Part shown: piece by piece, positions 3,785 through 31,749 of the stretch | How the letters are laid out: the number at the start of each line of letters is the position of its first letter | How positions within the stretch are numbered: position 1 is the first letter of the stretch | Assembly: GCA_937922005.1 (NCBI GenBank) | Contig: CAKZWV010000060.1 | Location: 1 to 62,763, forward strand | Length of the DNA stretch: 62,763 nt | Direction: 5' to 3' | DNA from: an uncultured Clostridia bacterium | GTDB taxonomy: Bacteria > Bacillota > Clostridia > Saccharofermentanales > DTU023 | The notes under the pieces: generated by a model | What the model saw: only the letters and a program-made list of their open reading frames with translations | What the model was told of the DNA's origin: nothing | Database searches by the model: none | Program-made: the position numbers and the translations under genes

Positions 3785-3943
3785 GCGGGCTCCGTTAGGA
3801 AATATACGCAGGATACGTAAGTATTCAGGGAGTATTTGTTAAAGATCGCAAGTTTCAAGGTGGAATGAGCGATCTTTGATTATAGGGGTCTAAGTTTAGG
3901 CCTGGACTCTGGGCCTCCCATAGCAAGAAAGAAGGATGATAGG

Positions 3944-5314: not shown

Positions 5315-5625
5315 GAATAGGGCTAGGGCATTATCGCAGGCTTGTTAAGCCTGGTATCCCGTCCGGGTATTCTCTCCTGGGCGGGATTTTATCTGTATAA
5401 GGAAGCAGGCTTGTTAAGTCATAAATGCCCGAATGTGGGGGGACCGACCTCCTCGAGTAGCGGGAGCCACTTCTAGGCCTGACTGATAGTTGGCGCAAAA
5501 GCCTGAGATGACGGGATTTGGCTTGCTATTTGCCCTTATTTTTAGTACTCTGTAAGAGGCCCTTCGTGGAGTTTTTGCTCACGGGGGCTTCTTTCGCATG
5601 GAATATTTGAAGAAGGAGAAGGTGA

Positions 5626-6336
5626 ATGCAAGACTCCAATCTTTATTTGGTCTTTACGGCGACACAATTGATGACGGGCCATGTTATTCGCTTCTGCAGT
5701 GGTGAAAAGTATAGTCATGTGTCGGTCAGCTTGAATGCTGACCTATTTCCGGTTTTTTCATATGCCCGACTTTACTATTCTCCGGCTTTTTATGGGGGCT
5801 TTACGGAAGAGTCGATGTACCGCTATACCAGGGAGACCCCCCTCAAGGTCTGCTCCTTGCCTATTCCTGCGGGGGCGGCGGAGAAAATCCAGGAAGAATT
5901 TACCTGGCGACTGGAAAATCCGGGTGCCTATAATTTTGCATCTCTGCTGACCTATCCCTTTCATATGCAGGCCCAGCATGATGATTCTTTTACCTGCACG
6001 GAATTTGCCTATCATCTTTTGAAAACCTATGCGCCTGATTTAGATCTTAAGGATCCGCCCTTGGTCAAGGGGAAGCAGCGGGGGGCAGTGAGCCTCCAAC
6101 AGATGCAAGCCTTGGCCGACCCCTACCTGGTCTATGAGGGTACGGTGGGGGACTTTCTCGACCGCCGGGATGATCAGGTGGAGCAGGAGCGTTTAGAAGC
6201 ATGGGCCCGGGACCACTATTTGACCAAGATCACTTGGGGGGAGAAGTGGCAGAGGTGGAAAAAGACGGGAGGGATGATCTGGTCGGAGATGACCTACTTA
6301 ATGCAGTGGATGCGAGAAGGCCCCCAGGCCAGGTAA
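5626..6336 (+). CDS. hypothetical protein; possible permuted papain-like amidase (YiiX/YaeF-like, His-then-Cys order)
   Basis: 236-aa ORF. 'YSHVSVSL' (His) precedes 'FTCTEFAY' (Cys), the order seen in permuted NlpC/P60-like folds. RBS aggagaagg. Confidence 0.35.
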   Translation: MQDSNLYLVFTATQLMTGHVIRFCSGEKYSHVSVSLNADLFPVFSYARLYYSPAFYGGFTEESMYRYTRETPLKVCSLPIPAGAAEKIQEEFTWRLENPGAYNFASLLTYPFHMQAQHDDSFTCTEFAYHLLKTYAPDLDLKDPPLVKGKQRGAVSLQQMQALADPYLVYEGTVGDFLDRRDDQVEQERLEAWARDHYLTKITWGEKWQRWKKTGGMIWSEMTYLMQWMREGPQAR

Positions 6337-6519
6337 GCTCTGCTCGAAGGGAGCGAAGAGGGCGTATTTGTTCCCGAATGATGCTGATGCGGGAGTATTT
6401 GCAACTTATTTCAAGGAGTTTTTCTCGTGAATTTTTTCGTGGGAAATTGTTCGTGGAAATTTTTTAGTAATTTTTTTAGTGATACCTTTAGTATTTTTTC
6501 GTAGTAAGGAGATAGAAGA

Positions 6520-8382
6520 ATGAAGATCGACGATCAAAAAGGTCAAAAGAAGTCGTTTTATGTGACGACCCCTATTTATTATACTTCTGCCAAATTGGGT
6601 ATTGGCAACGCTTACACCACGCTTTTGGCGGATGTCTTTGCTAGGTGGCACCGGCTTATGGGGGAGGATGTCTTTTTCCTCACTGGTACCGACGAGCACG
6701 GGAAGAAGATCCAACAAAAGGCGGAAGAAATGGGAATGGAACCGAAGGCCTACGTGGATGGACAGATTGCCCCAATCAAGGACCTGTGGAAGCTTTTTTC
6801 TATCTCCTACGATCATTTTATCCGCACGACGGACCCGGAGCATGTCGAAGTAGTCAAAACGGTCTTTCAAAAGCTCTATGATCAAGGGGACATTTATCTG
6901 GGCAAGTATGAGGGCCTTTATTGCATTCCCTGCGAGACCTGGTTTACGGGGACAGAGGCTCCTGACGGGATATGTCCGGATTGTGGGCGGCCTCTGACAG
7001 AAATGAATGAGGAATGCTATTTCTTCCGCCTCTCTAAATATGCCGACCGCCTGATCGCTTATCTAGATGAGCATCCGGATTTTATCCTTCCAGCCTTCCG
7101 GGCCAATGAGTTAAAGAGAAATTTCCTGGAAAAAGGCCTCCAGGACCTGGCCATTTCCCGGTCCACTTTTGATTGGGGCATTCCCTTGCCCTTTGACGAA
7201 AAACACGTGGCATACGTCTGGGTCGATGCTCTGAGCAACTATCTGACGGCCATTGGCTACCGGGCCGATGGGAAGGCAGATCCCGAGGCCCAGGCTCAAT
7301 TCGAGAAATATTGGCCAGCCGACCTCCAACTAGTGGGGAAAGATATTATTCGCTTCCACGGGATTATTTGGCCCATTTTATTGATGGCTTTAGATTTGCC
7401 CATGCCCAAGCACCTCTTTGCCCATGGCTGGCTCTTAAATCGGGGGCGGAAAATGAGTAAATCCAAAGGGAATACCATGGATCCAACTTTACTGAGCCAA
7501 ATAGTCCCGATCGACGGGATCCGCTATTATGTCCTCAGTGCGATGAATGATGGCGATGATGGGGACTACGACACGGATGAGCTCTTGGATCGGTCGAATT
7601 CTTTCTTAGCCAATGATGTAGGGAACCTCCTCAGTCGGACGGTAGCTATGATCCGGCAGAATTTCCCCGAGGGCTTTTCTGCGAAGACACTCGACGAGTT
7701 CCATAACCTGGTGGCCGCGATGCCCGAGGATTTCTTGGCTAGCGGCCTAGATGTCCAGGTGGATGATGCTCTGGCGGAGGCTGATCCTGCGGTCCGGAAG
7801 GAAAATCGAGACCGCTTGATTTGGAATCTTTGTGCACGGATGCGGGCGGGCCAGGAGGCCATGCACAAGGCCATGGAGGCTTTCCATGTAGTGAAGTCTT
7901 TGGATGCCCTGGCGGCTTGGACGGGGGCAGCCAACCTCTTTATTGACCAGACGAAACCTTGGGCTCTAGCCAAGTCGGAAGATCCGGCAGACCGAGATTT
8001 CTTGGCCCTGGGTCTTTTAGCCCTCACCGAGACCATGTATCAGCTGGCCGTCTATATGGAGCCCTTTGTGCCGGGTCTGGCTTTGGCTTATCTCAAGGGC
8101 CTTGGGATGGAAGTGCCGGAGGGGCAGGCCTTCTATGAGAACTTTAGTTTTGCTAGCTGCAAGTCTTTGGACCACATCCAGGCCGATCGACCCTTTGAAG
8201 AGGTGGCGGCCCTCTATCCTCGCCTGAAGAAGGCGGAGACCCTCAAGGCTATTGAAGATCTAATTCAGAAGGCGGCCAAGGAGGAAGCGGCGAAGGAGAA
8301 GGCAGCAGCAAAGGATAAGGCAGCGAAAGAAAAGGCAGCAGCCAAGGATTCTGCGCCTGCCAAGGAGGGCAAGGATGAGTAA
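6520..8382 (+). CDS. metG: methionine--tRNA ligase
   Basis: Class I synthetase with a KMSKS motif (KMSKSKGN), a Zn-knuckle CPDCG and an N-terminal 'PIYYTS..GNAYT' motif. A K/A/E-rich C-terminal tail replaces the usual tRNA-binding domain. Confidence 0.93.
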   Translation: MKIDDQKGQKKSFYVTTPIYYTSAKLGIGNAYTTLLADVFARWHRLMGEDVFFLTGTDEHGKKIQQKAEEMGMEPKAYVDGQIAPIKDLWKLFSISYDHFIRTTDPEHVEVVKTVFQKLYDQGDIYLGKYEGLYCIPCETWFTGTEAPDGICPDCGRPLTEMNEECYFFRLSKYADRLIAYLDEHPDFILPAFRANELKRNFLEKGLQDLAISRSTFDWGIPLPFDEKHVAYVWVDALSNYLTAIGYRADGKADPEAQAQFEKYWPADLQLVGKDIIRFHGIIWPILLMALDLPMPKHLFAHGWLLNRGRKMSKSKGNTMDPTLLSQIVPIDGIRYYVLSAMNDGDDGDYDTDELLDRSNSFLANDVGNLLSRTVAMIRQNFPEGFSAKTLDEFHNLVAAMPEDFLASGLDVQVDDALAEADPAVRKENRDRLIWNLCARMRAGQEAMHKAMEAFHVVKSLDALAAWTGAANLFIDQTKPWALAKSEDPADRDFLALGLLALTETMYQLAVYMEPFVPGLALAYLKGLGMEVPEGQAFYENFSFASCKSLDHIQADRPFEEVAALYPRLKKAETLKAIEDLIQKAAKEEAAKEKAAAKDKAAKEKAAAKDSAPAKEGKDE

Positions 8383-17965: not shown

Positions 17966-20900
17966 CTAGCTCACTGGCTTTTCTTTATCCTCCCTTTCTT
18001 GACCATGGGCTGTGTAGTAAAAGACTTGGTCGACCAAGGAGGTCAAGGAAGCTGGCGTATAAGAGGGCTGGTAGAGGGCATATTCCGGTTGGAAAAGAGG
18101 GAAGAGGGGGAGCTCATCACTTACATATTGGCAGATTTTTTGGTAGATCCTTTGTCGTTCATCGGGGTTGATAGCGACCGCAAGGTCCATAAGGAGGAGG
18201 TCCACATTGGGGTTGGCATAGGCCAAAAAGTTGTAGGTGAAAGATCCCTGGGCTGTAATATTAGAACTTGCCAAAAGTTGGTGAAAAAGCGGCTCTGTCG
18301 GTGCGTCTAGCTCAAAGAGAATCAGATCAAAATCAGCATTGCGCAGGGCCGCATCCAAGAGTTCCTGGGTGCTTAAACCCTTGATTTGGACAATGATTCC
18401 TTGATTTTGCAAACTCTTTTGAATTTGCTCTGCTAGGTTTCGATAAAGGTTGTTGTTCGAGGGGAAGATGAGTTTGATCTGCACTTGATCATTTTCCATC
18501 AATTCCTTAGCCGTTGCCGGGATATTGGGGAGGGGAACCTGCTTATTTGCAAGTTTTTCACGGTATTCTTTAATTCTTCGTAAAACCTGGGCGCTATAGG
18601 TTATGACAGGCGGATTGTCTTCCTTCTCCTTTACCTGGTAGCCCAGATTTTGTAAAAGCAGTTTTCCTCGTTCTGGCTGATAGGGCAAGGCTGAGATAGG
18701 ACTCTCATAGGGATAGATCCAAGAATTTGTGGGGACTGCCGAATCAGACCAGGCCCCCATTCCCTTAAGAAGGTTAGCAATTAGGGCTTCTCGGTCAATA
18801 TTGAGGCTGATAGCCCGACGAAAACCCATATCTGCACAGGGGGAGATGGGACTGCAGTTAAAGCCCAAAACCTCCAGGTGACCTGCCTTATGAGGCCATA
18901 AAAATGGCATGGCCTCCCCGGGATTTGCCTTCTTCTCCATACTAGGACCTTCAGGCAAGGAAATCTCAACGGGCCCGGCCTCCAAAGTCTTTCCTTGGGG
19001 GGGGGCTACAGAACTACTTGGCATCAGGTCTTCTGTGGTCTCTTCCGTAGAGGAACTGGGATCAGAAGAAAATGAGGGCTTGGAATCCAAAGTAGCAGAA
19101 GGGAGCGACATGTCCGTGGCAGGAGTCGAAGTCGCCGTGGAGCTAGGGCTCTCCAAGGCAGTGGCCCTTGCCCTGCTGGTTTCACCAGACTGAATAGAAG
19201 AAGGAGAACTAGAGCTACTTGACTGGTTGATCAGACCCGTGTCTCCTATTCTGTCCGGCTTCAAGGTTGTTGCTATGCCAATATGGTCATCCTCCGAAGC
19301 AAGAGAAAAATTTAGCATAGCCCCTTGAATGAGGTGGAGGGTCTGCAATTCTTCTGTCGTCAAACTATTCCCCAATTCAACACCAATCAGGGGTGCCCCC
19401 ACCCGGACGAAATTAGGATCGGTCAATTGATTGCGAGTAAGGGCAAAATCCTTCTTTTCCAGTTGAATTTGCCCTGTTAGGGCAACGTGGCGGTCCCAAT
19501 CCTTCGTTTCAGCGCCTAAGAGGCCTGGGGGTTTTGTAGCTGGATCCTCATCAGCATCCTCTTTTGCCTTGCTATCCGCCTGTCCCTCCTTATCTTTTTC
19601 CTTATCTTGGTTCAAGCTCTGCTCCTGGATCTCTTCCGCCCAATTCAAAAAATCGTCCATCGTCGGAAACTCATCTTTGTGGATTATCTGCAGCGAGGCC
19701 AGAACTTGCAAGTAAGCAGCGTGCGAAGGCAAATACTGACAAAGAATAGGTTGGTAGTCTGCTAGGGGCAGGCCCTTAGTTAAGGTAAAAGGGCTAGAAT
19801 AGACTTCAGTAGGATTCAAAGGATCCCTTTTCTCTTGAAGTCGAGGAATCCGCCATAGGGTCTCCTTATTGGGGGCCAGGAGGAGGCTTTGCTCCTCTTG
19901 GTTAATTTCTTGGACACAAAACAAACCAGATACAACGGGATTTTGTAAGAGATCCTTTTGTAAATGCCAGTATTCTACAGGAATCCTCTGCCAGATATGC
20001 TTAGGTAGGATCGGAAAACTCAATAAATGATCCAGTGCAGGAATATTTCCCCGGGAGAAGTGGAGGAGGATGGTGCGATCATCTGGGGTTTCTATCCCTT
20101 TGAGGGGGGCTACGTAAGCTGGCCCCTTGCCCCGATCTGCCAAAGACTGAAAGCGTTGAAGGATCTTACGAGTTTTGGGCACAGTCATCTCAGCCGTGCT
20201 AGCAGCCTTACTGGTGCGAACTTCGGTGTGGAGTTTCTCATCTTTATTAGCCCTCGGGAGGGTAGCAGGAAGGCTGGTTTCGTTAGAGGAACTGAGCGGG
20301 GAAGGAATGGTGAAGTCTTGAAGATTTAAAGGATTGAGATCTGTTACGAGGAGGTCTCCTGTGAAGAAAGGGTCTAAGGAAAGTAGGTGGTGGAGGCTAT
20401 TTCCCGTAGCTAAATCGATACTACGTTTTTGATAGTAGCTTTGGTAGAGGGTGGGATAACCGACCATATTGGAGACTAGGGCCCGGAAACGGAAGGGGGC
20501 CATGGGGTGAGCCAAAGCACTAAAGGTAAAGGCCACATCCTGAGAGGTGAGGGCCTCCCCATCACTCCAGGTCAGATCCGGCTGGAGGACGATCTGGACG
20601 GTCCGCCCATAATCCTGGACATCACAAGATTTAGCTAAAGCCAGTTGCTTCAGGCCACTGGACTCTTGAGCGCTTGCTTGGAGGGGCAGATATAGGATCC
20701 GGGTCAACCAACGCTCGGTGACGCTCTGATTATAAAAGGGATGAAATTGATAGGACAAGGGATCTTGCACAATAATAGCTGGGTAGCTCTTGAGGTCAGC
20801 CCCCTGGTCAACAGGCCCCTTGTCCTCAGCCTGAGTTGATTCTTGCGCTTTTATTGTTTCTTGCGCCCTTACAAGCGTTTCAGCAGGCCCAAGTGGATGA

Positions 20901-21031
20901 TTTCTTAGGCTAGATTCGCCCAAGTCCAAGCTCCGAGAGACAGGGCCTGGAAAGCGTGGTCCCATCATCAGGCCGATGATCATTAGGACTAGAAGGTAGA
21001 TTTTTTCTCTTTTCACCCTTGCATTCTTCAC
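17966..21031 (-). CDS. ABC transporter substrate-binding protein, family 5 (peptide/oligopeptide type), with large S/T/P-rich low-complexity insertion
   Basis: Signal/TM at the N-terminus and SBP_bac_5-like blocks ('ILPKHIW', C-terminal 'LPLFPLFQPEYALYQ'). Its 1021 aa compare with ~550 aa for a typical family member. Confidence 0.65.
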   Translation of the reverse strand: MKNARVKREKIYLLVLMIIGLMMGPRFPGPVSRSLDLGESSLRNHPLGPAETLVRAQETIKAQESTQAEDKGPVDQGADLKSYPAIIVQDPLSYQFHPFYNQSVTERWLTRILYLPLQASAQESSGLKQLALAKSCDVQDYGRTVQIVLQPDLTWSDGEALTSQDVAFTFSALAHPMAPFRFRALVSNMVGYPTLYQSYYQKRSIDLATGNSLHHLLSLDPFFTGDLLVTDLNPLNLQDFTIPSPLSSSNETSLPATLPRANKDEKLHTEVRTSKAASTAEMTVPKTRKILQRFQSLADRGKGPAYVAPLKGIETPDDRTILLHFSRGNIPALDHLLSFPILPKHIWQRIPVEYWHLQKDLLQNPVVSGLFCVQEINQEEQSLLLAPNKETLWRIPRLQEKRDPLNPTEVYSSPFTLTKGLPLADYQPILCQYLPSHAAYLQVLASLQIIHKDEFPTMDDFLNWAEEIQEQSLNQDKEKDKEGQADSKAKEDADEDPATKPPGLLGAETKDWDRHVALTGQIQLEKKDFALTRNQLTDPNFVRVGAPLIGVELGNSLTTEELQTLHLIQGAMLNFSLASEDDHIGIATTLKPDRIGDTGLINQSSSSSSPSSIQSGETSRARATALESPSSTATSTPATDMSLPSATLDSKPSFSSDPSSSTEETTEDLMPSSSVAPPQGKTLEAGPVEISLPEGPSMEKKANPGEAMPFLWPHKAGHLEVLGFNCSPISPCADMGFRRAISLNIDREALIANLLKGMGAWSDSAVPTNSWIYPYESPISALPYQPERGKLLLQNLGYQVKEKEDNPPVITYSAQVLRRIKEYREKLANKQVPLPNIPATAKELMENDQVQIKLIFPSNNNLYRNLAEQIQKSLQNQGIIVQIKGLSTQELLDAALRNADFDLILFELDAPTEPLFHQLLASSNITAQGSFTYNFLAYANPNVDLLLMDLAVAINPDERQRIYQKICQYVSDELPLFPLFQPEYALYQPSYTPASLTSLVDQVFYYTAHGQEREDKEKPVS

Positions 21032-21139: not shown

Positions 21140-21460
21140 CTATTCTGGACTTTCCCAGAGAAGTTCGTACTTTCCTTGGGGCTTTTCAAGATAGACAGCC
21201 ATGAGATCTTCGACCATCATCATCTCCGGCGAAAAGGGGAGGTAAAAAGCCACACCCGTCCCACAAGAGACACTCAACTTGCGGGGAACAGGGACCAAGA
21301 TAGCCCGGGGATCCCCTAGGTCGCTGATATTTTCGAAAAAGTCGAGGGCGGCCAAGTGGGTGTGAAAAACAGCGATTTGCCTTGCCGGGGTAGGATGGGT
21401 TTGATGTTGAAGGTTGTTATTCTTTTGGTCGTTCATATTCTCTCGTAATTTGTGATTCAT
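21140..21460 (-). CDS. hypothetical small protein downstream of tusA-yeeE
   Basis: ORF only; no motif recognised. Confidence 0.25.
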   Translation of the reverse strand: MNHKLRENMNDQKNNNLQHQTHPTPARQIAVFHTHLAALDFFENISDLGDPRAILVPVPRKLSVSCGTGVAFYLPFSPEMMMVEDLMAVYLEKPQGKYELLWESPE

Positions 21461-21599
21461 AGTAAGAAGAAGGGGGCCCTGAGGCCCCCTAGATTCCGCT
21501 CCAGGTTGGCAGAAGAAGCAAGTAGAAAGACAACAGCTTGCCTTAGGGGCTAAGAGTTAACCTTCTTTGGGCTTCAGGTGGGGAGCGGGAAGAAATGTT

Positions 21600-21809
21600 T
21601 TATGCTTTGCGCTGTAAAGTTAACACAAATTCTTCCCCATTTTGGGTGCGTTTTACTTCATAGCCATGGTTTTGAGCATAGCGGGTCACGTTTTCGGTGG
21701 GGGTGATATCGTCTAACAGGATTTCTAAGCTATCAGGCTGCTGATCGAGCTGGGCTTTAGTCTGTAAAACAGGTTCCGGGCAGGATAGGCCTCTTACATC
21801 AAGAGTCAT
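21600..21809 (-). CDS. TusA-like sulfurtransferase (YeeD/TsuB-type)
   Basis: 69-aa ORF with a CPxP motif, 'RGLSCPEPV'. Confidence 0.85.
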   Translation of the reverse strand: MTLDVRGLSCPEPVLQTKAQLDQQPDSLEILLDDITPTENVTRYAQNHGYEVKRTQNGEEFVLTLQRKA

Positions 21810-21844
21810 AGTTTTCTCCTTTATCTTTTTAGGCTACGCCAGGC

Positions 21845-22972
21845 TTAGAGTGCCTTAGCTTTCGTGCCTTTGAGGGCTTGGTTGCGTCGAATCTGGGTGA
21901 CGACAATCACCGTAAGGACGACAAAGCCAATGATCACCATGCATTTTCCATTGGCGCTGATGCCACCTTGCTTGACCAGGACCCCGTCCTTAACGGTATC
22001 AGGGGCACCGGCTAGGCCAAAGTTATGGGAGAAGGCAGCTCCAATCAGCATCCCTAAGACGGTGATCGCAGAATCGATATTGCCAGTTCCTGTTAGGATG
22101 AGTTGGCGCAGGGGGCAGCCGCCAAGGAGGACGGATCCATAGCCAACTAAGGCCATGCCCAAAATATTCCAGACCACGCTGGAGTGAGCAATGGGCTGAC
22201 CGATCATGGAAAAATGCACCTTGTTAGCGATCAAATTGACGATAAAGGCGGAGACCAAAATCCCAATCGATCCAAGCAGCAAGGTCCAATCCTTCAGCAT
22301 AAATAGGTCACGGAAGCCACCAGCCATGCAGAGTCTCGACCGTTGGGCTAAGGCTCCAGCGACGAGAGCGACGCCAAGGCTCAAGTAAACATTGGCATGC
22401 ATGCTGCCAGGTCCTTTTTCGGAGAAGGCAAAGAGGGCAGGTACGGCAATGACCGCAATGAGGATGATGAGAGACGTAATAGGTAGGGCTACACCCTCCA
22501 GCTTAGGCTCATTATGGGTACGTCCCAGGGAGTAGCCTTTTTGTAAGGCGATCACTCCCATAAAAATACCTACAGCAAAACCAATAAGGGCAATCCAAGC
22601 GTTGAGGTCACCTGCGCTCATCCGAAGGACCAAGCGCATAGGGCAGCCTAAGAAGGCCAGGGCTCCAATCATGACGAAAAAGCCAATCGTGAAGCGTAAC
22701 AGAGGGGAAGAGCCTCCCCTTGCCTTAAATTCTTTGGTTGCCAAGCTAATGATCATAGAGCCCAGTAAGAGTCCAACAATTTCCGGTCGGAAATATTGAA
22801 CAGGTGCCGCAGTATGGAGCTTCAAGGCTCCGGCCGAATCTCTCAAGAAACAGGCAATACAAAGGCCCATGTTGCCAGGGTTGCCCGCCAGCATCAGGCC
22901 AATTGCCATAGCGCCCAAGAGCAATCCTACCCCAAGGGCTATCCATTTATCTTTATTCACAAATACCTCCAA
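21845..22972 (-). CDS. YeeE/YedE family sulfur-compound (thiosulfate) transporter
   Basis: Polytopic membrane protein with two Cys-containing repeats (GLCIACFLRD and RLCMAGGFRD). The ORF-track start is TTG; a GTG at 22960 sits 5 nt after GGAGG and is the more likely start. Confidence 0.8.
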   Translation of the reverse strand: MEVFVNKDKWIALGVGLLLGAMAIGLMLAGNPGNMGLCIACFLRDSAGALKLHTAAPVQYFRPEIVGLLLGSMIISLATKEFKARGGSSPLLRFTIGFFVMIGALAFLGCPMRLVLRMSAGDLNAWIALIGFAVGIFMGVIALQKGYSLGRTHNEPKLEGVALPITSLIILIAVIAVPALFAFSEKGPGSMHANVYLSLGVALVAGALAQRSRLCMAGGFRDLFMLKDWTLLLGSIGILVSAFIVNLIANKVHFSMIGQPIAHSSVVWNILGMALVGYGSVLLGGCPLRQLILTGTGNIDSAITVLGMLIGAAFSHNFGLAGAPDTVKDGVLVKQGGISANGKCMVIIGFVVLTVIVVTQIRRNQALKGTKAKAL

Positions 22973-23173: not shown

Positions 23174-23902
23174 CTATGATACGAAAGTTTTCATCTTGGC
23201 ACAGCGGTGGCGTCGATACCAGTCGTCCCATTGTTCAAAAAAGATGACCAGGGAGACATAAGCTAGATCGACATAGAAGTAGAGTTTTTGATTGATGGCA
23301 AGCTGTGGAGGGAAACGCTTTACCATCATGTTTTCCAGCCATTGGCCATAGATAGGGACGATAAGAAAGACGGCGATAGCTAAACACATGAGGTAGAGGA
23401 ACAGAAGCAGCCCCTTGCCTGGCAGAGTATGCAAAAACCAGGTTTTCTCACTCTTCTGTTGCTGGAAAGAAAAGCCGGAATCTGGAACGACATCGACCCG
23501 AAGAAGCCATAAGGAGAAAAGACGTAATAGAAAAATGGGACGAATGACTCCAAAACAGGATAATAGGAGGGCACCGACTATGAATCTAGGGGCTATCAGT
23601 CGCAGCCAAAAGAGATATATAGGGGCACTAGTGGGGTAGGGGTTATCAGCGATGATGGTGATATTGATAAGGAGCCATATAAGAGCAAGAGCGATGACAC
23701 CGAGTTGAAGAAAACGCTTTATCCAGTTCGTCAACGTTGCATAGCGCTGAAAGGGTAGGAGGTCTTGCATCAACCTTGCCTGAAGGTCAGGATTTCCCGG
23801 AGCGAAGTTATGCTTCACAACCTGGCCACATTTGGGACAACAGATGTAGGTAGCCTCATGGGCGAAGAAGTAATATTGGCAAGCATTATTTTCGCAGATC
23901 AT
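23174..23902 (-). CDS. zinc-ribbon (CxxC...CxxC) polytopic membrane protein, paralog A
   Basis: N-terminal 'CENNAC...CCPKCG', 3-4 TM helices and a conserved C-terminus 'QLAINQKLYFYVDLAYVSLVIFFEQWDDWYRRHRCA'. Its termini are near-identical to 24248..24967 at the DNA level. Confidence 0.5.
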   Translation of the reverse strand: MICENNACQYYFFAHEATYICCPKCGQVVKHNFAPGNPDLQARLMQDLLPFQRYATLTNWIKRFLQLGVIALALIWLLINITIIADNPYPTSAPIYLFWLRLIAPRFIVGALLLSCFGVIRPIFLLRLFSLWLLRVDVVPDSGFSFQQQKSEKTWFLHTLPGKGLLLFLYLMCLAIAVFLIVPIYGQWLENMMVKRFPPQLAINQKLYFYVDLAYVSLVIFFEQWDDWYRRHRCAKMKTFVS

Positions 23903-23970
23903 AGGTCACCGAATTTCACTTATTGTGGCGTAATCTCGGGATTAAGGCCAAGTCCAATTCCATATTAAGG

Positions 23971-24144
23971 TTAACCATATCTATGTAATGTGCGGTTTAT
24001 GTCCGTAATTTCAGCCATAATTTCTATAGCGTAAGCATTTTCAGACGTTGTTTCTTCAGCCTTAACGAGTCGCATTTTACTTGGCATTACGATAGGGATA
24101 AGTATGGTAAAGCATAATAAAAAAAGAATAGAATTTTTCTTCAT
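23971..24144 (-). CDS. unannotated 57-aa ORF with signal-peptide-like N-terminus (MKKNSILFLLCFTILIPIVMPSKMRLVKA|EETTSENAYAIEIMAEITDINRTLHRYG)
   Basis: Translated by hand from the minus strand. ATG at 24144-24142, with GGAG 9 nt upstream (aaaggagaacttgcccATG) and a TAA stop at 23973-23971. Absent from the ORF track because it is under 60 aa. Confidence 0.45.
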   Translation of the reverse strand: MKKNSILFLLCFTILIPIVMPSKMRLVKAEETTSENAYAIEIMAEITDINRTLHRYG

Positions 24145-24247
24145 GGGCAAGTTCTCCTTTCAAGAAAACTGGATAAATGGTTGGTCTATTGATTGCCAAA
24201 TTAAACTTCTAGGTGGAAAACGTCTTGGTGTATGGCAGGTATTTCTT

Positions 24248-24967
24248 TTATAACCTTCTAATCTGGGCACAGCGGTGGCGTCGATACCAGTCGTCCCATT
24301 GCTCAAAACAGATGACCAGGGAGACATAAGCTAGATCGACATAGAAGTAGAGTTTCTGATTGATGGCAAGCTGTGGATAGCGACTTGGTGGCAAGATCTT
24401 TTCGTTCCATTGCTGGTAAGAAGGTACACGATGCCGGATAATCCATATTAGGAAAAGTAGGTAAAGTACTAGGATGATGCTCTTTCCTGGTAAGGTATGC
24501 CAGAACCAGGCTTTTTCATTCTTTCTCTGTTGGAAGGAAAAACCGGAATCAGGAATAACATTGACCCCCAACGTGCGTATAGACCAGCGTTGTGCTATAG
24601 ACATGAGTGGAATGGCCCCAAAACAAACCAAGAGGAAAAAAGCCGTACAGTAACGTTGGACTCCCATCTTGACTACCAATGAGCCAATAGATTCATCGTT
24701 CATAGAAACATTCGAAAGCGCAATACTGTTGCATGCACCCTCTATCAAGGCAAGAAGGATCAGGCCCATCCAAACCGCACCTTTTGTTCGATTGCTCATC
24801 TTGAGATAGCGCTGAAAGGGTAGGAGTTCTTGCATCAATCTAGCCTGAAGGTCAGGATTCCCGGGAGCGAAATTATGCTTCACAATCTGGCCACATTTGG
24901 GACAGCAGATGTAGGTAACCTCATGGGCGAAGAAGTAATATTGGCAAGCATTATTTTCGCAGATCAT
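24248..24967 (-). CDS. zinc-ribbon (CxxC...CxxC) polytopic membrane protein, paralog B
   Basis: Same architecture as 23174..23902. The N-terminal 55 aa and C-terminal 35 aa are almost identical and the middle is diverged. A strong SD (aaaggagg) is present. Confidence 0.5.
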   Translation of the reverse strand: MICENNACQYYFFAHEVTYICCPKCGQIVKHNFAPGNPDLQARLMQELLPFQRYLKMSNRTKGAVWMGLILLALIEGACNSIALSNVSMNDESIGSLVVKMGVQRYCTAFFLLVCFGAIPLMSIAQRWSIRTLGVNVIPDSGFSFQQRKNEKAWFWHTLPGKSIILVLYLLFLIWIIRHRVPSYQQWNEKILPPSRYPQLAINQKLYFYVDLAYVSLVICFEQWDDWYRRHRCAQIRRL

Positions 24968-25293
24968 AGCCGGCCTCCTTTGTCGCAGGAGCTTAAAGCT
25001 TAGTCAAAAGCTGGTAAATACCAAGGCGATCGTTACCAGGATTGTGTCCATGAATCAGCTTTGAAACCGCTTACTAGGTGGATTTTAATTGTTCTATGCG
25101 ATTATCATAGCAAATATAGGGGGCTGTAGCTAGGAAAATTGCTTGCTCTGACTAGATCCTTATCTTTTCCATGAGGGTCTCTGGGGAAAGGCGTTTTTGG
25201 CTCCCCAAAAAGAGAGAATCCTTCTTTTATGCGGTTATTTTTGGATATTCTTGAACATTGTGCTACTATCCTTCCTTTGTTATGATGGTGTTT

Positions 25294-26155: not shown

Positions 26156-27385
26156 TTAACCTCCAATCAAGCTCTGATCGAAGGCAAATACGGCCTCATT
26201 GATTTCAAAGACGTTATAGTTCCCATGTTCTACAAAATATTCCACAATGATGTCAAATTTATGAGAGTGAGAGAGGGCAAAGCCTGCTTTCATGAGCATA
26301 TCTTTCATTTCCTCAAGGGGTAATTCCAGGGCGATGGCAAAGGCGATGGCTGTTGACTTGGAGGGCCTATAGGCCGTATTAGAGCGGATCTTGGAGAAAA
26401 GCCTCCGATCAACGTTGGCCTTTTTATAACATTCGGCATCGGTCATGCCGGATTCGTCAATCTTGCGCAGGAGCATTTCAGAAAAGCTTTCATCGATCTC
26501 TTTTAGGGCCTCATTGAGCGAAGGCAGGCTCTTGAGGGAGAATTCATTAGGGATGCGATCAATTTGGATTTCTACAGGCTCTTCCCTAACCGAAAGCTCA
26601 TAAGACGAAAATTCATTATTGTAGGATAACTTGTCATGCTTATCTTGATAAAAGGCAATTCCATCATTGCCCTCATAGAGGGTATTCAGATCTTCCTCTT
26701 CATAAGGAGCACTTCCATCCTCGTCTTCAAAGGGGAGACTCCCATCAGCCCCCTCCTCAGAATAAGGACCTTGCTCGTTCGGTAAACGGTAATCTCTTTG
26801 CTTAAGCCCCAAGTGATAGGGGCCATGCGCATGCGTGTAGCGGTCCGTGCCTTGCGAATCCGTGTAGCGGTCATCGATGTAGGCAGCAAGGTCAGCAAAT
26901 AGTTTGTTACTGATCTGGTAGGACTTTTTGTCGAAAATGACCAGGTAAACCATCATATCGTGGTCAAGCAAAAAAGCACGGATCGTATCGATGGCAATCC
27001 TCAAGGCCTGATCCTTTGGATAAGCAAATATTCCAGCAGATATTAACGGAAAAGCTATTGATTCGCAGCCGTACTCATTAGCCAGCATAAGGGAAGTATG
27101 ATAGCAGGAAGTTAAAAGATCAGCTTCTCCCTGCTGGCCGCCAGACCAGCGGGGTCCGACAGCATGGATAACATACTTGCAGGGCAACTGGTAGGCTTTC
27201 GTGATTTTGGCACTTCCCGTCTTGCAGCCATGGAGGGTGGCGCATTCGGCTAAAAGTTTAGGCCCTGCCGCCCGGTGAATGCAGCCATCTACGCCACCAC
27301 CGCCCATTAGGGACTCGTTGGCAGCGTTGACGATGGCGTCAACCTTCATCTTGGTGATGTCATTTCTGACGATTTGCAGTGGCAT
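26156..27385 (-). CDS. Macro domain (MacroD-type ADP-ribose binding/hydrolase) fused to C-terminal XRE-type helix-turn-helix
   Basis: 'VNAANESLMGGGGVDGCIHRAAG' macro motifs, an acidic linker, then 'MTDAECYKKANVDRRLFSKIRSN...TAIAFAIALELPLEEMKDML', an XRE-like HTH. The second ATG, preceded by GGAGG, is the likely start. Confidence 0.65.
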   Translation of the reverse strand: MPLQIVRNDITKMKVDAIVNAANESLMGGGGVDGCIHRAAGPKLLAECATLHGCKTGSAKITKAYQLPCKYVIHAVGPRWSGGQQGEADLLTSCYHTSLMLANEYGCESIAFPLISAGIFAYPKDQALRIAIDTIRAFLLDHDMMVYLVIFDKKSYQISNKLFADLAAYIDDRYTDSQGTDRYTHAHGPYHLGLKQRDYRLPNEQGPYSEEGADGSLPFEDEDGSAPYEEEDLNTLYEGNDGIAFYQDKHDKLSYNNEFSSYELSVREEPVEIQIDRIPNEFSLKSLPSLNEALKEIDESFSEMLLRKIDESGMTDAECYKKANVDRRLFSKIRSNTAYRPSKSTAIAFAIALELPLEEMKDMLMKAGFALSHSHKFDIIVEYFVEHGNYNVFEINEAVFAFDQSLIGG

Positions 27386-27510
27386 AAAGGAACCTCCGTT
27401 CATTTTTGCATTGTGCCCTTTTCTGTGGCGACAGAATTATTTTAAATTCTTAAAAAGTTCTTGACAAGGAAGATACTATGCGATACGATGTATAGCACGA
27501 AAGGAGGTAT

Positions 27511-27834
27511 GTGATGGATGCTCAGTTGAAACGTGGTCTATTGGATATCTGTGTTTTAGCGGCCATCAAGAATGAGGATTCTTACGGCTATAAGATCATA
27601 AAAGACCTAACACCCTATGTCGAGCTTTCTGAATCAACCCTCTACAGCATTCTGAAGCGATTGGAAAAGGCCAATATGTTAGGGGTTCGCAGAGTGGAAC
27701 ACAACGGCAGACTCCGAAAATATTACCATATCACCCCAGAGGGGCTAGGGCGCATCGAAGAGTTTAAAGACGAGTGGCAACAAATAGAGAGGATTTACCA
27801 ATTCATAATAAAGGAGGATCATGGCAATGAATAA
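27511..27834 (+). CDS. PadR family transcriptional regulator
   Basis: 'LDICVLAAI...SYGYKIIKDL...TLYSILKRLEKANML', a winged-HTH PadR signature. Confidence 0.85.
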   Translation: MMDAQLKRGLLDICVLAAIKNEDSYGYKIIKDLTPYVELSESTLYSILKRLEKANMLGVRRVEHNGRLRKYYHITPEGLGRIEEFKDEWQQIERIYQFIIKEDHGNE

Positions 27835-28429
27835 GAAAGAATTTCTTGCCAACTTGCGAAATGCCTTGTCTGGCTTGCCGCAGGATGAAATAGAAGAGCG
27901 TTTGACGTTTTACGCTGAAATGCTCGACGACAGGATGGAAGAAGGACTATCTGAAGAAGAGGCCGTTTTGGCTGCTGGCCCAATAGATGATATTGTGAAG
28001 CAGGTTGTGGCAGAAGTGCCTTTGACTAAAATTGCTAAAGAAAGGATCCGTCCTAAGCACCAACTGGCTGGCTGGGAAATGATCCTTTTGATCTTGGGGG
28101 CCCCACTCTGGCTACCTCTTGGTTTGGCAGGAATCTTGACGATTCTTTCCGTCTATGTTTCTCTATGGGCGGTCATTATTTCTCTCTGGGCGATCTTTGC
28201 CTCTTTTGTACTATGTGGAGGCAGTCTCTTCCTGACCAGCCTTATTATGTGCCTTCGTGGCAGCTTTGTGGCAGGGCTAGCTTTGCTGGGGGCAGGGATG
28301 ATTTGTAGCGGATTATCTATTTTCATGTTTTATGCCTGCAAGGTCATTACGGCGGGTATTGTGAAGCTTACAAAGAAATTTACCTTGTGGGTAAAAAATT
28401 GCTTTATAGGGAAGGAAAAAGCGCAATGA
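27821..28429 (+). CDS. DUF1700 (HAAS-type) membrane protein
   Basis: N-terminal 'KKEFLANLRNALSGLPQDEIEERLTFYAEMLDD' followed by a multi-TM C-terminus. Second gene of the classic three-gene module. Confidence 0.7.
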   Translation: MAMNKKEFLANLRNALSGLPQDEIEERLTFYAEMLDDRMEEGLSEEEAVLAAGPIDDIVKQVVAEVPLTKIAKERIRPKHQLAGWEMILLILGAPLWLPLGLAGILTILSVYVSLWAVIISLWAIFASFVLCGGSLFLTSLIMCLRGSFVAGLALLGAGMICSGLSIFMFYACKVITAGIVKLTKKFTLWVKNCFIGKEKAQ

Positions 28430-29400
28430 AAAGGAAAACGAAAAATTGGCTTGGCGCAGGAGCTAGCCTTATCCTTGTTGGATTGATTCTTTATGTTGGT
28501 GCTATGACAGCTCTCAAGTGGGACTATGCGAAGATGTCTACGATCGATTATGTAAGTAATACGCATGAAATCAAGGAGTCTTTCCGTAATATCTCTCTGA
28601 AGACGGATGAAGCAAGAATTGTCTTTGCCTTGTCAAAGGATGGAAAGTGTAGGGTCGAGTGCTACGAGGAGGCCAAAGCTGTGCATGCTGTCGCTGTAAA
28701 AGAAGCTACCCTCTCCATTGAGATGACTCATACAAGGTCTTGGTATGATTATATTGGTATACATTATGAATCGCCGAAAATTACAGTATATCTTCCGAAG
28801 CAAGAGTACAATGCCCTGTCTATTAATTTAAATGTTGGAAATATTGAAATAGAGAATAAACTGGCTTTTACAAACGCAGATATCAGATTATCCACGGGTA
28901 ACGTGAACTATGGCGCATCTACGAAAGAAGCTATTCACATTCAGATTGGCACAGGGAATATTTCTGTGGGCAGATTGACAGCTGGCTCACTGGATATTTC
29001 CAGTGCGGTGGGGACGGTTGCCATTACGGATCTGACCTGCAAGAATGATCTTACTTTAGGTTTGACGACTGGCACAACAAGCTTAAACGATGTTTTCTGT
29101 GGAAATCTTGTCTCAACTGCCACGGCTGGCGAGATCACCCTCGATCATGTGATCGCAAGAGAAAAGTTTACCATCGAAAGAGATACGGGCAATATAAAAT
29201 TTAAGGGAAGCGATGCAGCTGAAATCCATGTAAAAACGAATACCGGAAATGTAAGTGGTAGTCTACTGACCAATAAGGTTTTTCTTGCCAAGAGTGAATC
29301 TGGTAAGGTTCATCTTCCCCCATCTACCACCGGCGGCCCATGCAAAATTGATGTGCTCACAGGGAATATCGATATGGAGATTGACGAGAAAGCTGAATGA
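28426..29400 (+). CDS. DUF4097 ('putative adhesin' beta-helix) domain membrane protein
   Basis: N-terminal TM followed by repetitive 'TGN(I/V)..' beta-helix rungs. Start chosen at MKRKTKNW, overlapping the upstream gene's stop. Confidence 0.7.
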   Translation: MKRKTKNWLGAGASLILVGLILYVGAMTALKWDYAKMSTIDYVSNTHEIKESFRNISLKTDEARIVFALSKDGKCRVECYEEAKAVHAVAVKEATLSIEMTHTRSWYDYIGIHYESPKITVYLPKQEYNALSINLNVGNIEIENKLAFTNADIRLSTGNVNYGASTKEAIHIQIGTGNISVGRLTAGSLDISSAVGTVAITDLTCKNDLTLGLTTGTTSLNDVFCGNLVSTATAGEITLDHVIAREKFTIERDTGNIKFKGSDAAEIHVKTNTGNVSGSLLTNKVFLAKSESGKVHLPPSTTGGPCKIDVLTGNIDMEIDEKAE

Positions 29401-29481: not shown

Positions 29482-29510
29482 TTGACAAAGCCCCCTTATC
29501 TTTCTATACT
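29482..29510 (+). promoter_or_regulatory. sigma-70-type promoter for the rib leader (TTGACA-17-TATACT)
   Basis: ttgaca at 29482-29487, a 17-nt spacer, then tatact at 29505-29510. Confidence 0.5.
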
Positions 29511-29516
29511 GGTGCG

Positions 29517-29770
29517 AGTAGAGTAACCTTCAGGGCGGGGTGTAAGTCCCCACCGGCGGTGTGAGCCCGCAAGCTAGGCCTCCAGGAAGAAAATAGATAG
29601 GTAAATTCTTCTTTTTCCTTTTGGAGTCTGGCCGATCTCTAGGACCAAGAGAGCCGACAGTGACAGTCTGGATGAAAGAAGGAAACTTATGGATGGCCTG
29701 TGTTCATCCCATGTCCCCTTGCCCGCCTGGTGTCCCCTGTCTGTTGCTCGACCAACGAGGGGCTTTTTTT
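29517..29770 (+). promoter_or_regulatory. FMN riboswitch (RFN element) with intrinsic-terminator expression platform
   Basis: 'AGGGCGGGGTGTAAGTCCCCACCGGCGGT...GCCGACAGTGACAGTCTGGATGAAAGAAGG' matches the RFN consensus. A GC hairpin plus TTTTTTT at ~29735-29770 precedes ribD. Confidence 0.85.
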
Positions 29771-29878
29771 ATGCCCGGATTTAGATCGACTGGGGCCAGC
29801 GACTGCTGTGACTCGGCCTGACCTCTGCCCCATGGCTTTTATGGCCCAAGCTGGCCCCGAATTTGCCCCAGAAAGGAG

Positions 29879-31081
29879 TTGCCCACGAGGCTAGATACGA
29901 TGACTCTAGATGAACAATATATGCAAGAGGCCCTGGACCTGGCCCAGACTGCCCGCCGGGCCGTCCGTCCCAACCCGATGGTTGGGGCAATCCTTGTTAA
30001 GGATGGGAATATTTTGGCCAGGGGCTACCACAAAGGCCTGGGCCTGCCCCATGCCGAAATCGATGCTCTCCGCCAGGTGACCAAGGAGGAGGCAGAGGGA
30101 AGCACCCTCTATGTGACCCTGGAACCCTGCTGTCACCAGGGACGGACCCCGCCCTGCACCAAGGCCATTCAAGCGGCCAAGATCAAAAAGGTCGTCGTCG
30201 CCATGGAAGACCCTAATCCCAAGGTGGCGGGGAAGGGCCTGGCCATCCTCCAGGAAGCTGGTGTGGAAGTCGTTTCCGGAGTCCTCGAGGCAGAGGCTCG
30301 GAAAGTCAACGAAATTTTTATCCACTATATCAGCCAAGGCCTTCCCTATGTCGTAGCCAAATACGCCATGACCGCCGATGGCAAAATCGCAACGCATACC
30401 GGCGATTCTCAGTGGATTACGGGGGAAGAGGCCCGGGCCCACGTCCACAAGATACGGGCGGATCTCGCCGGAATTATGGTGGGCATTAACACCGTTCTTC
30501 ATGACGACCCCCTTTTGACCGCCCGCCTCCCCCAAGCCGTTCAGCCGGTCAGGATTATTTGTGACAGCCACCTCCGCCTGCCACTCACTTCCCAGCTGGC
30601 CCAAACAGCCCGGACCTACCGAACCATTGTGGCCTATGCTCCTGCTGCAAATACTCCCGCCTCTGTCGCAAGGCCCCAGGAGGCTCAGGCGTCGAAGGCG
30701 AGGGCCTTGGAGGCTCTAGGAGTGGAGCTCTTGCCCATTCCAGCCCGGGATAGGGAGTATTTGGATCTGAGGGCCCTCCTGAAGGCTTTGGCCGCTCGAG
30801 AGATCGATAGCCTTTTGGTGGAGGGAGGAGGTACCCTCCATGCCAGCCTTTTTGAGGAAAAGCTGGTGGACAAGGTCCTGGTTTATGTTGGCGGAAAACT
30901 CCTAGGGGGGAAAGAGGCACCTACTCCCCTGGAGGGGGTCGGTGTGGCCAAGATGAAGGATGCCATCCCCCTGACCCTCGAGGGCCTAGAATCCTGGGGA
31001 TCTGATGCCCTCTTAACCTACCGGGTGGAGGAGCAAGCGAAAGGAGGAGGGCCATGTTCACAGGCATCGTCGAAGAAGTAG
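29879..31081 (+). CDS. ribD: bifunctional riboflavin biosynthesis deaminase/reductase; carries ~30-aa in-frame insertion
   Basis: Deaminase motifs 'HAEIDAL' and 'PCCHQGRTPPC', plus a reductase domain. The insertion 'AANTPASVARPQEAQASKA' contains the dispersed motif GCAAATACTCCC. Confidence 0.9.
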   Translation: MPTRLDTMTLDEQYMQEALDLAQTARRAVRPNPMVGAILVKDGNILARGYHKGLGLPHAEIDALRQVTKEEAEGSTLYVTLEPCCHQGRTPPCTKAIQAAKIKKVVVAMEDPNPKVAGKGLAILQEAGVEVVSGVLEAEARKVNEIFIHYISQGLPYVVAKYAMTADGKIATHTGDSQWITGEEARAHVHKIRADLAGIMVGINTVLHDDPLLTARLPQAVQPVRIICDSHLRLPLTSQLAQTARTYRTIVAYAPAANTPASVARPQEAQASKARALEALGVELLPIPARDREYLDLRALLKALAAREIDSLLVEGGGTLHASLFEEKLVDKVLVYVGGKLLGGKEAPTPLEGVGVAKMKDAIPLTLEGLESWGSDALLTYRVEEQAKGGGPCSQASSKK

Positions 31082-31749
31082 GGATTATCCAAGGAATTCG
31101 ACCATCTGGGGCTGGTGGGGCTGCTCGCTTTACCATCCGTTGTCCAAAAATTCGCCCGGGGATTGCCCTGGGTGACAGTGTGGCGATCAATGGCCTGTGT
31201 CTGACGGCTGAGCATTTGGAACCGGAGGGCTTTTCAGCTGATGTGATGCCGGAGAGTGTCCGTCGGTCCAACCTAGGGACCCTCCAAGTGGGTTCCCGAG
31301 TCAATGCAGAGCGGGCCCTCCAGGCCGGGGGACGCTTGGGCGGCCATATTGTCACAGGGCACATTGATGGGACCGGCCAGCTCAAAAGCGTACGCCAAGA
31401 GGGCAACGCTCTCTGGGTTGAAATTACCTGTCCCTCGGCTCTGAGCCTATACCTGGCCCCCAAGGGCTCGATTGCCATTGACGGGGTGAGCCTTACCTTG
31501 GCCAAGGTCCTTCCAGACGGCTTTGCTGTATCCCTGATTCCTCATACGGTGGCTTCGACCACCTTGGCAACTCTGAATCCGGGAAGGACCTTTAACCTGG
31601 AATGCGACATCATAGGGAAATATGTCTACCGATATTTATGCCAGGGAGTATTTGCAGGAGGACCAGGAAGTCAGGAAGGGGCCTCGGCAGCAGCAAATAC
31701 TCCTAGACCCTTTGATGAAGGATTTTTACGAGAAAACGGGTTTCTATAA
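31054..31749 (+). CDS. ribE: riboflavin synthase alpha subunit; C-terminus carries palindromic-element insertion
   Basis: 'MFTGIVEEVG' start, two lumazine-binding repeats and a '...IGKYVYRYL' end motif, followed by extra residues encoded by the GGGAGTATTTGC...GCAAATACTCC element. Confidence 0.85.
   Translation: MFTGIVEEVGIIQGIRPSGAGGAARFTIRCPKIRPGIALGDSVAINGLCLTAEHLEPEGFSADVMPESVRRSNLGTLQVGSRVNAERALQAGGRLGGHIVTGHIDGTGQLKSVRQEGNALWVEITCPSALSLYLAPKGSIAIDGVSLTLAKVLPDGFAVSLIPHTVASTTLATLNPGRTFNLECDIIGKYVYRYLCQGVFAGGPGSQEGASAAANTPRPFDEGFLRENGFL
31643..31703. repeat. ~61-bp palindromic element (GGGAGTATTTGC-N38-GCAAATACTCC) inserted in-frame in the ribE 3' end
   Basis: Inverted 11/10-mer arms. The same 11-mer recurs at least 12 times in the window. 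Confidence 0.6.

Follow-up and report, generated by a model that had tools for sequence, protein, structure and literature searches.

Pore-forming colicins are matched by integral-membrane immunity proteins such as Cai and Cei, and the immunity genes can persist without the toxin. Streptococcal bacteriocin loci with orphan immunity genes are also known, as are polymorphic-toxin loci of the contact-dependent growth inhibition (CDI) and Rhs types with orphan toxin-tip/immunity cassettes. Here, we analyzed a 62,763-nucleotide stretch of DNA from an uncultured Clostridia bacterium (contig CAKZWV010000060.1; hereafter the window), in which two genes for zinc-ribbon membrane proteins, Z_A and Z_B, flank a 57-codon open reading frame (ORF), the micro-ORF. 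A sequence-only reading had taken the micro-ORF for the gene of a secreted 28-residue peptide in a signaling, receptor, or immunity-type module. The locus is most probably a degenerate copy of a conserved cassette consisting of Z and of a gene that we call P, in which P has lost ~960 bp internally and later one further base, both Z genes remaining intact. For the window, the main result is negative, the apparent gene for a secreted micropeptide being a deletion relic, and the locus itself is of limited interest. The by-product is the P-Z pair, which occurs in oral streptococci, Granulicatella, and anaerobes of the Tissierellia/Peptostreptococcales type, with a distant form in Actinomycetota.

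The P-Z cassette resembles the colicin systems in that a helical, predicted exported protein with a hydrophobic helical segment is encoded next to a small protein with three to four transmembrane (TM) helices, and in that specificity would be expected to reside within the membrane. It differs from them in showing no sequence or fold similarity, in the Sec signal peptide predicted for P and the cytoplasmic zinc ribbon predicted for Z, and in being chromosomal in Gram-positive bacteria rather than plasmid-borne. With bacteriocin, CDI, and Rhs loci it shares 1) the repeated loss or truncation of the putative effector gene with retention of the small membrane partner, 2) tandem diverged copies of that partner, 3) several loci per genome, and 4) recombination at conserved flanks that moves variable cassettes. 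In contrast to these loci, P is ~350–400 residues long and has no double-glycine leader, neither an ABC exporter nor regulatory genes are linked to it, and it is the partner gene Z, not the effector, that contains the conserved "handles".

The first clue to the nature of the micro-ORF came from Streptococcus oricebi, where two adjacent Z homologs are preceded by a 365-residue protein with a similar N terminus (AAETQNEMSDIDYATEVMAEILEINKILEPLG). A profile search with proteins of this type returned three relevant sequences. P0020, from a related metagenomic strain (locus L015), is an intact protein of 395 residues that starts with MKKNSILFLLCFTILIPIVMPSNMRLVKAEETTSENAYAIEIMAEIM and ends with YGIGLGLNPEITPQ. 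P0031 is the 57-residue product of the window's own ORF, already a predicted protein in an NCBI/ENA-derived collection, so the earlier description of the micro-ORF as unannotated did not hold. P0032, from locus L016, has 79 residues and an unrelated tail. The micro-ORF is identical to the N terminus of P0020 at 51 of its 57 residues, and a hidden Markov model (HMM) of the P family built without it matches it at E = 1.7e-10. Downstream, a 3′ stump in the window is identical to the C terminus of P0020 and aligns to positions ~1730–1773 of L015; it ends 17 nt ahead of the start of Z_B, the same spacer as in L015, where alignment of the contig DNA places an intact P between two Z genes. Only 6 nt separate the two P stumps in the window.

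L016 originates from another sample and matches window positions 24296–23204 at 90% identity; it and the window share one gap of 962 alignment columns (~960 bp) inside P relative to L015. Because this junction is common to two independent assemblies, the deletion is not an assembly artifact. Upstream of it, the window keeps the promoter-proximal spacer of P, its ribosome-binding site (RBS), and codons 1 to ~60. In L016 the two P remnants are out of frame with each other, which yields the 79-residue P0032; the window carries an extra 1-nt deletion (GGTTTAACC to GGTTAACC), absent from L016, that leads to a stop after codon 57. Since both ends of P are present, its middle is absent, and the intact gene exists in L015, the micro-ORF is the 5′ stump of a dead gene for a 395-residue protein predicted to be exported, and not a peptide gene. 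It encodes a signal peptide and 28 residues from the start of the mature protein, after which a premature stop ends the frame. Its N terminus is strongly hydrophobic, with a Kyte–Doolittle (KD) hydropathy of 2.16 for the near-identical N terminus of P0020, and is followed by VKA|EE; the proposed signal peptide is borne out, but as part of the larger P protein.

A functional gene for a secreted, acidic, pheromone- or bacteriocin-like peptide, with the paralogs as its receptors or immunity proteins, would account for the start codon, Shine–Dalgarno (SD) sequence, and signal peptide that the stump has kept, and for a dN/dS (the ratio of nonsynonymous to synonymous divergence) below 1, namely 0.36, in the comparison with L016. 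That ratio, however, reflects ~8 synonymous and 12 nonsynonymous changes and does not reject neutrality (p = 0.051). The divergence of the stump (88.3% nucleotide identity to L016) equals that of the adjacent noncoding spacer (89.2%), which is conserved with the Z-P spacer of L015 as well, and the comparison yielded no positive evidence that the stump is maintained. For Z_B, which is 90.4% identical to its L016 ortholog, dN/dS is 0.20 (binomial p = 4e-9), and this gene has clearly been under purifying selection since P was deleted. A peptide gene is also hard to reconcile with an ORF that is the cut-off 5′ end of a 395-residue gene whose 3′ end lies 6 nt downstream, and with a stop that stems from a 1-nt deletion not found in L016. 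No short homologs were found besides the two deletion derivatives P0031 and P0032, the micro-ORF not being conserved as a short ORF in related genomes (395 residues in L015, 79 in L016), and there are no genes for processing, export (ABC-C39), or two-component signaling (histidine kinase/response regulator) nearby. We regard this interpretation as highly improbable. It is also improbable, if less extremely so, that the stump has been kept for use in cis, with its promoter, RBS, and translated leader keeping Z_B transcribed or translationally coupled after the loss of P. The weak SD of Z_B, its start 17 nt after the P stop in the intact locus, and a stump and RBS still open across ~10% nucleotide divergence are consistent with such a role, but the distance from the stump's stop to Z_B is 68 nt in the window and 3 nt in L016, and a coupling distance is therefore not conserved. 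As this relic illustrates, gene decay can leave behind short ORFs that have a good ribosome-binding site and a signal peptide.

The features of the locus are collected in Table 1. As the sequence-only reading had it, the three ORFs lie on one strand, no terminator-like sites were found between them on the minus strand, and the micro-ORF has a good SD (AGGAG, 9 nt ahead of its ATG). Z_A has a strong SD (GGAGG at 24974–24978) and Z_B only a weak one (GGTGA, 3 nt ahead of its ATG). In the public annotation, Z_B (P0001, 198 residues) starts at Met45 and is missing the zinc ribbon; the full 242-codon gene is backed by the conservation of all four cysteines in the L016 ortholog and by a dN much lower than dS over codons 1–54. 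The guanine-plus-cytosine (GC) content of the locus is slightly under that of its surroundings and is not distinctive.

Table 1. Coordinates of the P-Z locus and its parts in the window
Feature	Position	Strand	Description
Z_A	24248-24967	minus	239 aa; zinc-ribbon membrane protein; from ORF, family alignment, and AlphaFold2 model
Z_B	23174-23902	minus	242 aa; Z_A paralog whose membrane core is of another type ("B type")
Micro-ORF (5′ stump of P)	23971-24144	minus	57 aa from ATG
3′ stump of P	23920-23964	minus	last 14 codons YGIGLGLNPEITPQ and original stop
Junction of the internal P deletion	23965-23970	minus	from three-way DNA alignment (window, L016, L015)
Spacer between Z_A and P stump	24145-24247	minus	carries the P ribosome-binding site AGGAG at 24154-24158
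Homogenized N-terminal segment of Z_A (codons 1-54)	24806-24967	minus	repeat family D1; partner in Z_B at 23741-23902
Homogenized C-terminal segment of Z_A	24263-24376	minus	repeat family D2; partner in Z_B at 23195-23308

Full-length P proteins are predicted to be Sec-exported and mostly helical, with ~350–400 residues. In P homologs, the N-terminal signal peptide is followed by an acidic helix (YAxEIMAEIxEIN) and by a conserved core in which polar residues are invariant (E..M..SHY.D ... S...Y...WI...DR..Y..Y). A hydrophobic segment rich in Gly and Ala lies ~45 residues from the C terminus, with a KD of 1.5–2.4 in most members, and the tail, which ends in R.xRYYG, is net basic; hydropathy and tail charge were computed over 25 members. 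The AlphaFold2 (AF2) model is all-alpha at moderate confidence, with a predicted local distance difference test (pLDDT) score of 69, and has no specific structural neighbor, and no homology to known toxin domains was found. The only recurring domain match, TMP_C, was rejected, as it spans 15 residues in P proteins of the S. sanguinis type and scores 21.7 bits, below the cut-off of 27.

A scan of a genome collection found 26 P loci. The hosts include Streptococcus sanguinis, S. panodentis, S. oricebi (two loci), and other Streptococcus, together with Granulicatella, Tissierellia, Filifactor, and Aneurinibacillus; further hosts are Peptostreptococcaceae, Lachnospiraceae, Oscillospiraceae, Cellulomonas, Cellulosimicrobium, Schumannella, and a Bifidobacteriaceae metagenome-assembled genome (MAG). 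Two P loci per genome were seen in S. oricebi, one Tissierellia MAG, and one Cellulomonas. When all ORFs of the retrieved loci were scanned with HMMs, Z adjoined P in every Bacillota locus of the closer clades, in the arrangements P-Z (metagenome locus L008), P-Z-Z (S. oricebi and S. sanguinis), Z-P (Anaerosalibacter), and Z-P-Z, with an insertion sequence (IS) added in Granulicatella seriolae (Z-IS-P-Z). In Aneurinibacillus, Cellulomonas, Schumannella, and the Bifidobacteriaceae MAG, a distant P is followed by a multi-TM protein that often starts with CxxC...CxxC, and a profile of these distant partners matches the N terminus of Z (hhalign probability 85%, E = 6e-6). Almost every intact P with a readable neighborhood adjoins an intact multi-TM gene, the exception being L037; in L019 and L023 the contig stops at P and the partner is not readable. 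L037 (positions 3455–7643, a Peptostreptococcaceae MAG) has a distant P flanked by inverted copies of a ~383-residue membrane protein that is not of the Z type.

The chromosomal neighbors of the cassette vary from species to species. A tblastn search with P0020 found no P among 50,697 phage or 72,556 plasmid records, none was found in IMG/VR, and there was no PHROG match. A metagenome scan with the same query yielded one distant locus, cut off inside P. Upstream of the P genes of streptococci there is no CIN-box (TACGAATA), and several of these regions have extended -10-like matches (TGnTAnAAT). A text search of the literature on this cassette returned nothing relevant.

Z is a very rare family. 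A word-indexed search of 5.8 billion clusters returned only the window's own two genes, and an exhaustive phmmer search of 1.84 billion representatives returned 13 Z proteins (clusters), the named members being from S. oricebi (two adjacent accessions) and G. seriolae. Z_A and Z_B are true paralogs, as had been proposed, with 59% amino-acid identity (BLASTP, E = 5e-93), an N-terminal Cys4 ribbon, and membrane-spanning middles. For Z_A, the ribbon is predicted to be formed by C3, C8, C22, and C25, followed by four predicted TM helices and the C-terminal tail WDDWYRRHRC. In the family alignment, the ribbon reads C-x4-C ... C-P-x-C and the tail W-x-D-W-Y-x-R-x-x-C, and a Trp of the central loop and a Pro behind TM3 are conserved; C8, Y10, F12, C22, P23, C25, W154, and P182 are near-invariant, and C3 is mostly conserved. 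The AF2 model of Z_A is confident (pLDDT 82, predicted TM-score [pTM] 0.78) and consists of a small N-terminal beta element with short strands at residues 2–28 (pLDDT 84–92), a long helix made of the juxtamembrane region and TM1, three more TM helices, and two short helices in the central loop (helices at 38–85, 94–116, 121–133, 143–157, 159–191, and 198–237). Counts of Lys and Arg would place the N terminus, central loop, and C-terminal tail in the cytoplasm. On this predicted topology, the homogenized or conserved parts would all be cytoplasmic, and the diverged parts membrane-embedded and outward-facing.

When Z_A, Z_B, the stump, and several of the P proteins were scanned against Pfam, NCBIfam, PADLOC, and PHROGs, nothing significant was returned (the best PADLOC match was CARF_2M, E = 0.059), and per-member Pfam scans of both families were negative, which bears out the earlier remark that no known family fits. 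Pfam ribbon models gave subthreshold matches in a few Z members (best E 0.0066–0.1). The short Cys4 ribbon at the extreme N terminus is reminiscent of the zinc_ribbon_2, DZR, and Zn_ribbon_3 membrane proteins of Firmicutes, but the TM core and tail of Z define a separate family. TIGR01218, a Gram-positive tandem five-TM protein, was considered and rejected (11.3 bits, cut-off 35). Neither Z nor P has a sequence match in the PDB or a likeness to a solved fold. Both families are uncharacterized and without curated annotation in the libraries tested.

P has decayed independently in at least five lineages, and in three of them Z is intact. Besides the window lineage, these are S. sanguinis SK355R and B14863032, in which codon 31 of P is a stop (P is intact in a third genome of this species), and locus 2 of S. 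oricebi, in which P carries multiple frameshifts. In G. seriolae, where insertion sequences have landed in the locus, and in the Tissierellia locus L020, the Z genes are damaged as well as P. Solitary or P-less Z genes are found in L003–L006, L025, L027, L029, and the window. Some solitary copies sit in stable contexts, as in L006 and in L003–L005, the latter between a 5-formyl-tetrahydrofolate cyclo-ligase gene and rnf in three samples. As would be expected of effector-immunity pairs, almost every intact P with a readable neighborhood has such a partner, that of L037 being a different one, and the partner can be alone. A further solitary Z homolog lies on the low-GC contig L001, where the database product P0007 (224 residues, positions 338–1012) continues past a TGA at which the ORF would end, with 218 residues, under table 11; its host may read UGA as Trp, as in a Mycoplasmatota-type code.

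The two Z genes of the window are ~95% identical over their first ~160 nt and last ~125 nt, and ~50% identical in the middle. We estimated divergence per segment by the Nei–Gojobori method, as synonymous and nonsynonymous divergence (dS, dN) or as the corresponding proportions of differing sites (pS, pN). Over codons 1–54, dS is 0.23 and dN 0.023, and over codons 199–236 dS is 0.09, whereas synonymous sites are saturated over codons 55–135 (dS 2.4) and 166–198 (dS 1.9). Between the latter two segments, codons 136–165 encode the internal motif PDSGFSFQQ...W..HTLPGK, with a protein sequence that is conserved (pN 0.13) and synonymous sites that are saturated (pS 0.78); this internal loop is old and constrained, not homogenized. 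Low dS at the ends, set against saturated dS in the middle, argues for gene conversion and not for constraint alone. The data therefore support a recent homogenization of the ends by gene conversion, as the sequence-only reading had suggested from the near-identical termini, and an old middle. In Z_A, the N-terminal homogenized part contains the predicted cytoplasmic zinc ribbon as well as the beginning of the juxtamembrane helix, and the C-terminal part covers TM4 and the cytoplasmic tail. Conversion most probably keeps the cytoplasmic ends near-identical, and the membrane cores represent anciently diverged "types". Other Z pairs show a weaker version of this pattern, their N-terminal codons having a lower synonymous divergence than the middle (pS over codons 1–30 of 0.07 for the S. 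oricebi pair, 0.2 for that of S. sanguinis, and 0.3 for that of S. panodentis, compared with 0.5–0.9 in the middle), and in one Streptococcus MAG the two Z copies are almost identical.

The cores have also changed places. The order is A type, stump, B type in the window and B type, P, A type in L015, so that the core positions are reversed. Upstream of P, L015 carries a Z with a B-type core that is 97.7% identical to Z_B of the window and is joined, inside the conserved 3′ block, to an A-type 3′ end and spacer; the Z downstream of P has an A-type core that is 94% identical to that of the window. In the alignment of L015 positions 1–2113 with window positions 23193–24969, the crossover points fall within the conserved 5′ and 3′ blocks. 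A similar exchange of Z positions distinguishes S. sanguinis KO9 from a related MAG (L022 and L024). Both ends of the L015 contig are within Z genes; this points to an assembly break caused by the repeat and, possibly, to a longer array. With contigs this short, the swapped cores fit either of two explanations, namely that the conserved ends act as recombination handles or that the strains carry longer arrays.

In P, variation appears to be concentrated in the hydrophobic segment, as seen among S. sanguinis alleles, and in Z it appears to be concentrated in the membrane core; the P tail and the cytoplasmic face of Z seem to be constant. This distribution suggests that P and Z probably meet in the membrane, through a variable intramembrane interface and a constant cytoplasmic one. 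Because P has been lost with Z kept, Z genes occur alone, and an intact P has a near-universal partner beside it, a tentative reading is that Z neutralizes or protects against P in an immunity-like manner; the presence of two loci per genome in some hosts and a genomic context that varies between species were also counted in its favor. Of the receptor- or immunity-type module in the sequence-only reading, the peptide thus falls away as the partner, and the immunity-type idea survives with full-length P in its place. It is possible, but rather doubtful, that the pair represents a new class of effector-immunity systems whose membrane cores can be swapped. Two points weigh against a protective pair. 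The hydrophobic segment and basic tail of P are more simply those of a C-terminally anchored surface protein of the producer than of a diffusible toxin, and a conserved zinc ribbon in the cytoplasm would be of no obvious use to an immunity protein. Against the reading of the locus as a degenerate copy, the borderline dN/dS of the stump makes weak constraint on it possible, and our data cover one contig of this genome, elsewhere in which an intact P could sit.

P and Z could instead form a cooperative, nonantagonistic membrane complex. P would then act as a surface sensor or envelope factor anchored by its C terminus, with one or two Z subunits that transmit to, or organize, the cytoplasmic side via the zinc ribbon and tail; the Z genes of the window would then persist by working with another P elsewhere in the genome, or alone. 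In its favor, the TM-grade Gly/Ala-rich segment of P and the ~45-residue basic tail behind it are what bitopic membrane proteins typically have. The predicted cytoplasmic side also holds all the conserved parts of Z, several genomes combine a single P with two different Z genes, and P and Z genes overlap or abut. Such a complex accounts better than immunity for the anchoring features of P and for the frequent ratio of one P to two Z, but it leaves unexplained why Z outlives P, and we consider it conceivable though on balance doubtful. The least likely option, which we judge extremely improbable, is that Z proteins are zinc-binding anti-sigma (ZAS) factors or similar tethers of transcription factors. 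Like ZAS/zf-HC2 proteins, Z has an N-terminal, cytoplasmic, predicted zinc-binding Cys-rich module ahead of its membrane spans, but its motif is C-x4-C ... C-x2-C, the HxxxCxxC motif is absent from the alignment, and it has four TM helices and not one. No zf-HC2 or other anti-sigma Pfam model matched any of 14 Z members, even at E up to 1. There is no adjacent sigma-factor gene in the window or in most other loci, the sole sigma-70-type gene, in L013, lying ~1.6 kb off behind a Phd/Fic pair, and the conserved neighbor of Z is P, not a regulator. The lack of a conserved linked regulator disfavors this role. Whichever way P and Z act, the cassette has evolved in an unusual, mosaic manner, and it shows features usual for loci of interbacterial conflict or surface variation, with repeated loss of one partner, tandem diverged copies of the other, concerted evolution limited to the cytoplasmic ends, and core swapping. 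Since S. sanguinis is genetically tractable, the function of the pair is open to direct testing.

In the window, the locus is surrounded by vWA-like, Macro-domain, PadR/HAAS/DUF4097, and TusA/YeeE genes, and no gene for a sigma factor, kinase, or exporter is present near it. Directly downstream of Z_B (21140–22972, minus strand) are genes for a YeeE/YedE-type transporter (Sulf_transp), TusA, and a Se/S-carrier-like protein, which point to sulfur/selenium handling. Further along the same strand (17966–21031), a family-5 solute-binding protein of 1021 residues is far longer than typical members and contains long low-complexity insertions rich in Ser, Thr, and Pro. On the other side, a 415-residue protein (26156–27403, minus strand) combines an N-terminal Macro domain (E = 3e-45) with a long C-terminal extension that has no Pfam match, and genes for a PadR regulator, a HAAS-domain membrane protein, and a DUF4097 "toastrack" protein follow in a row (27511–29400, plus strand), a recurrent putative stress-sensing triad. 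A flavin mononucleotide (FMN) riboswitch (29522–29687, plus strand; 81.7 bits) lies upstream of ORFs, and the region 29500–31500 has a GC content of 55–61%, against ~45–48% in the rest of the contig, and may be a compositionally foreign, riboflavin-related segment. Finally, a single tRNA gene is located near the end of the contig (61708–61781, plus strand).

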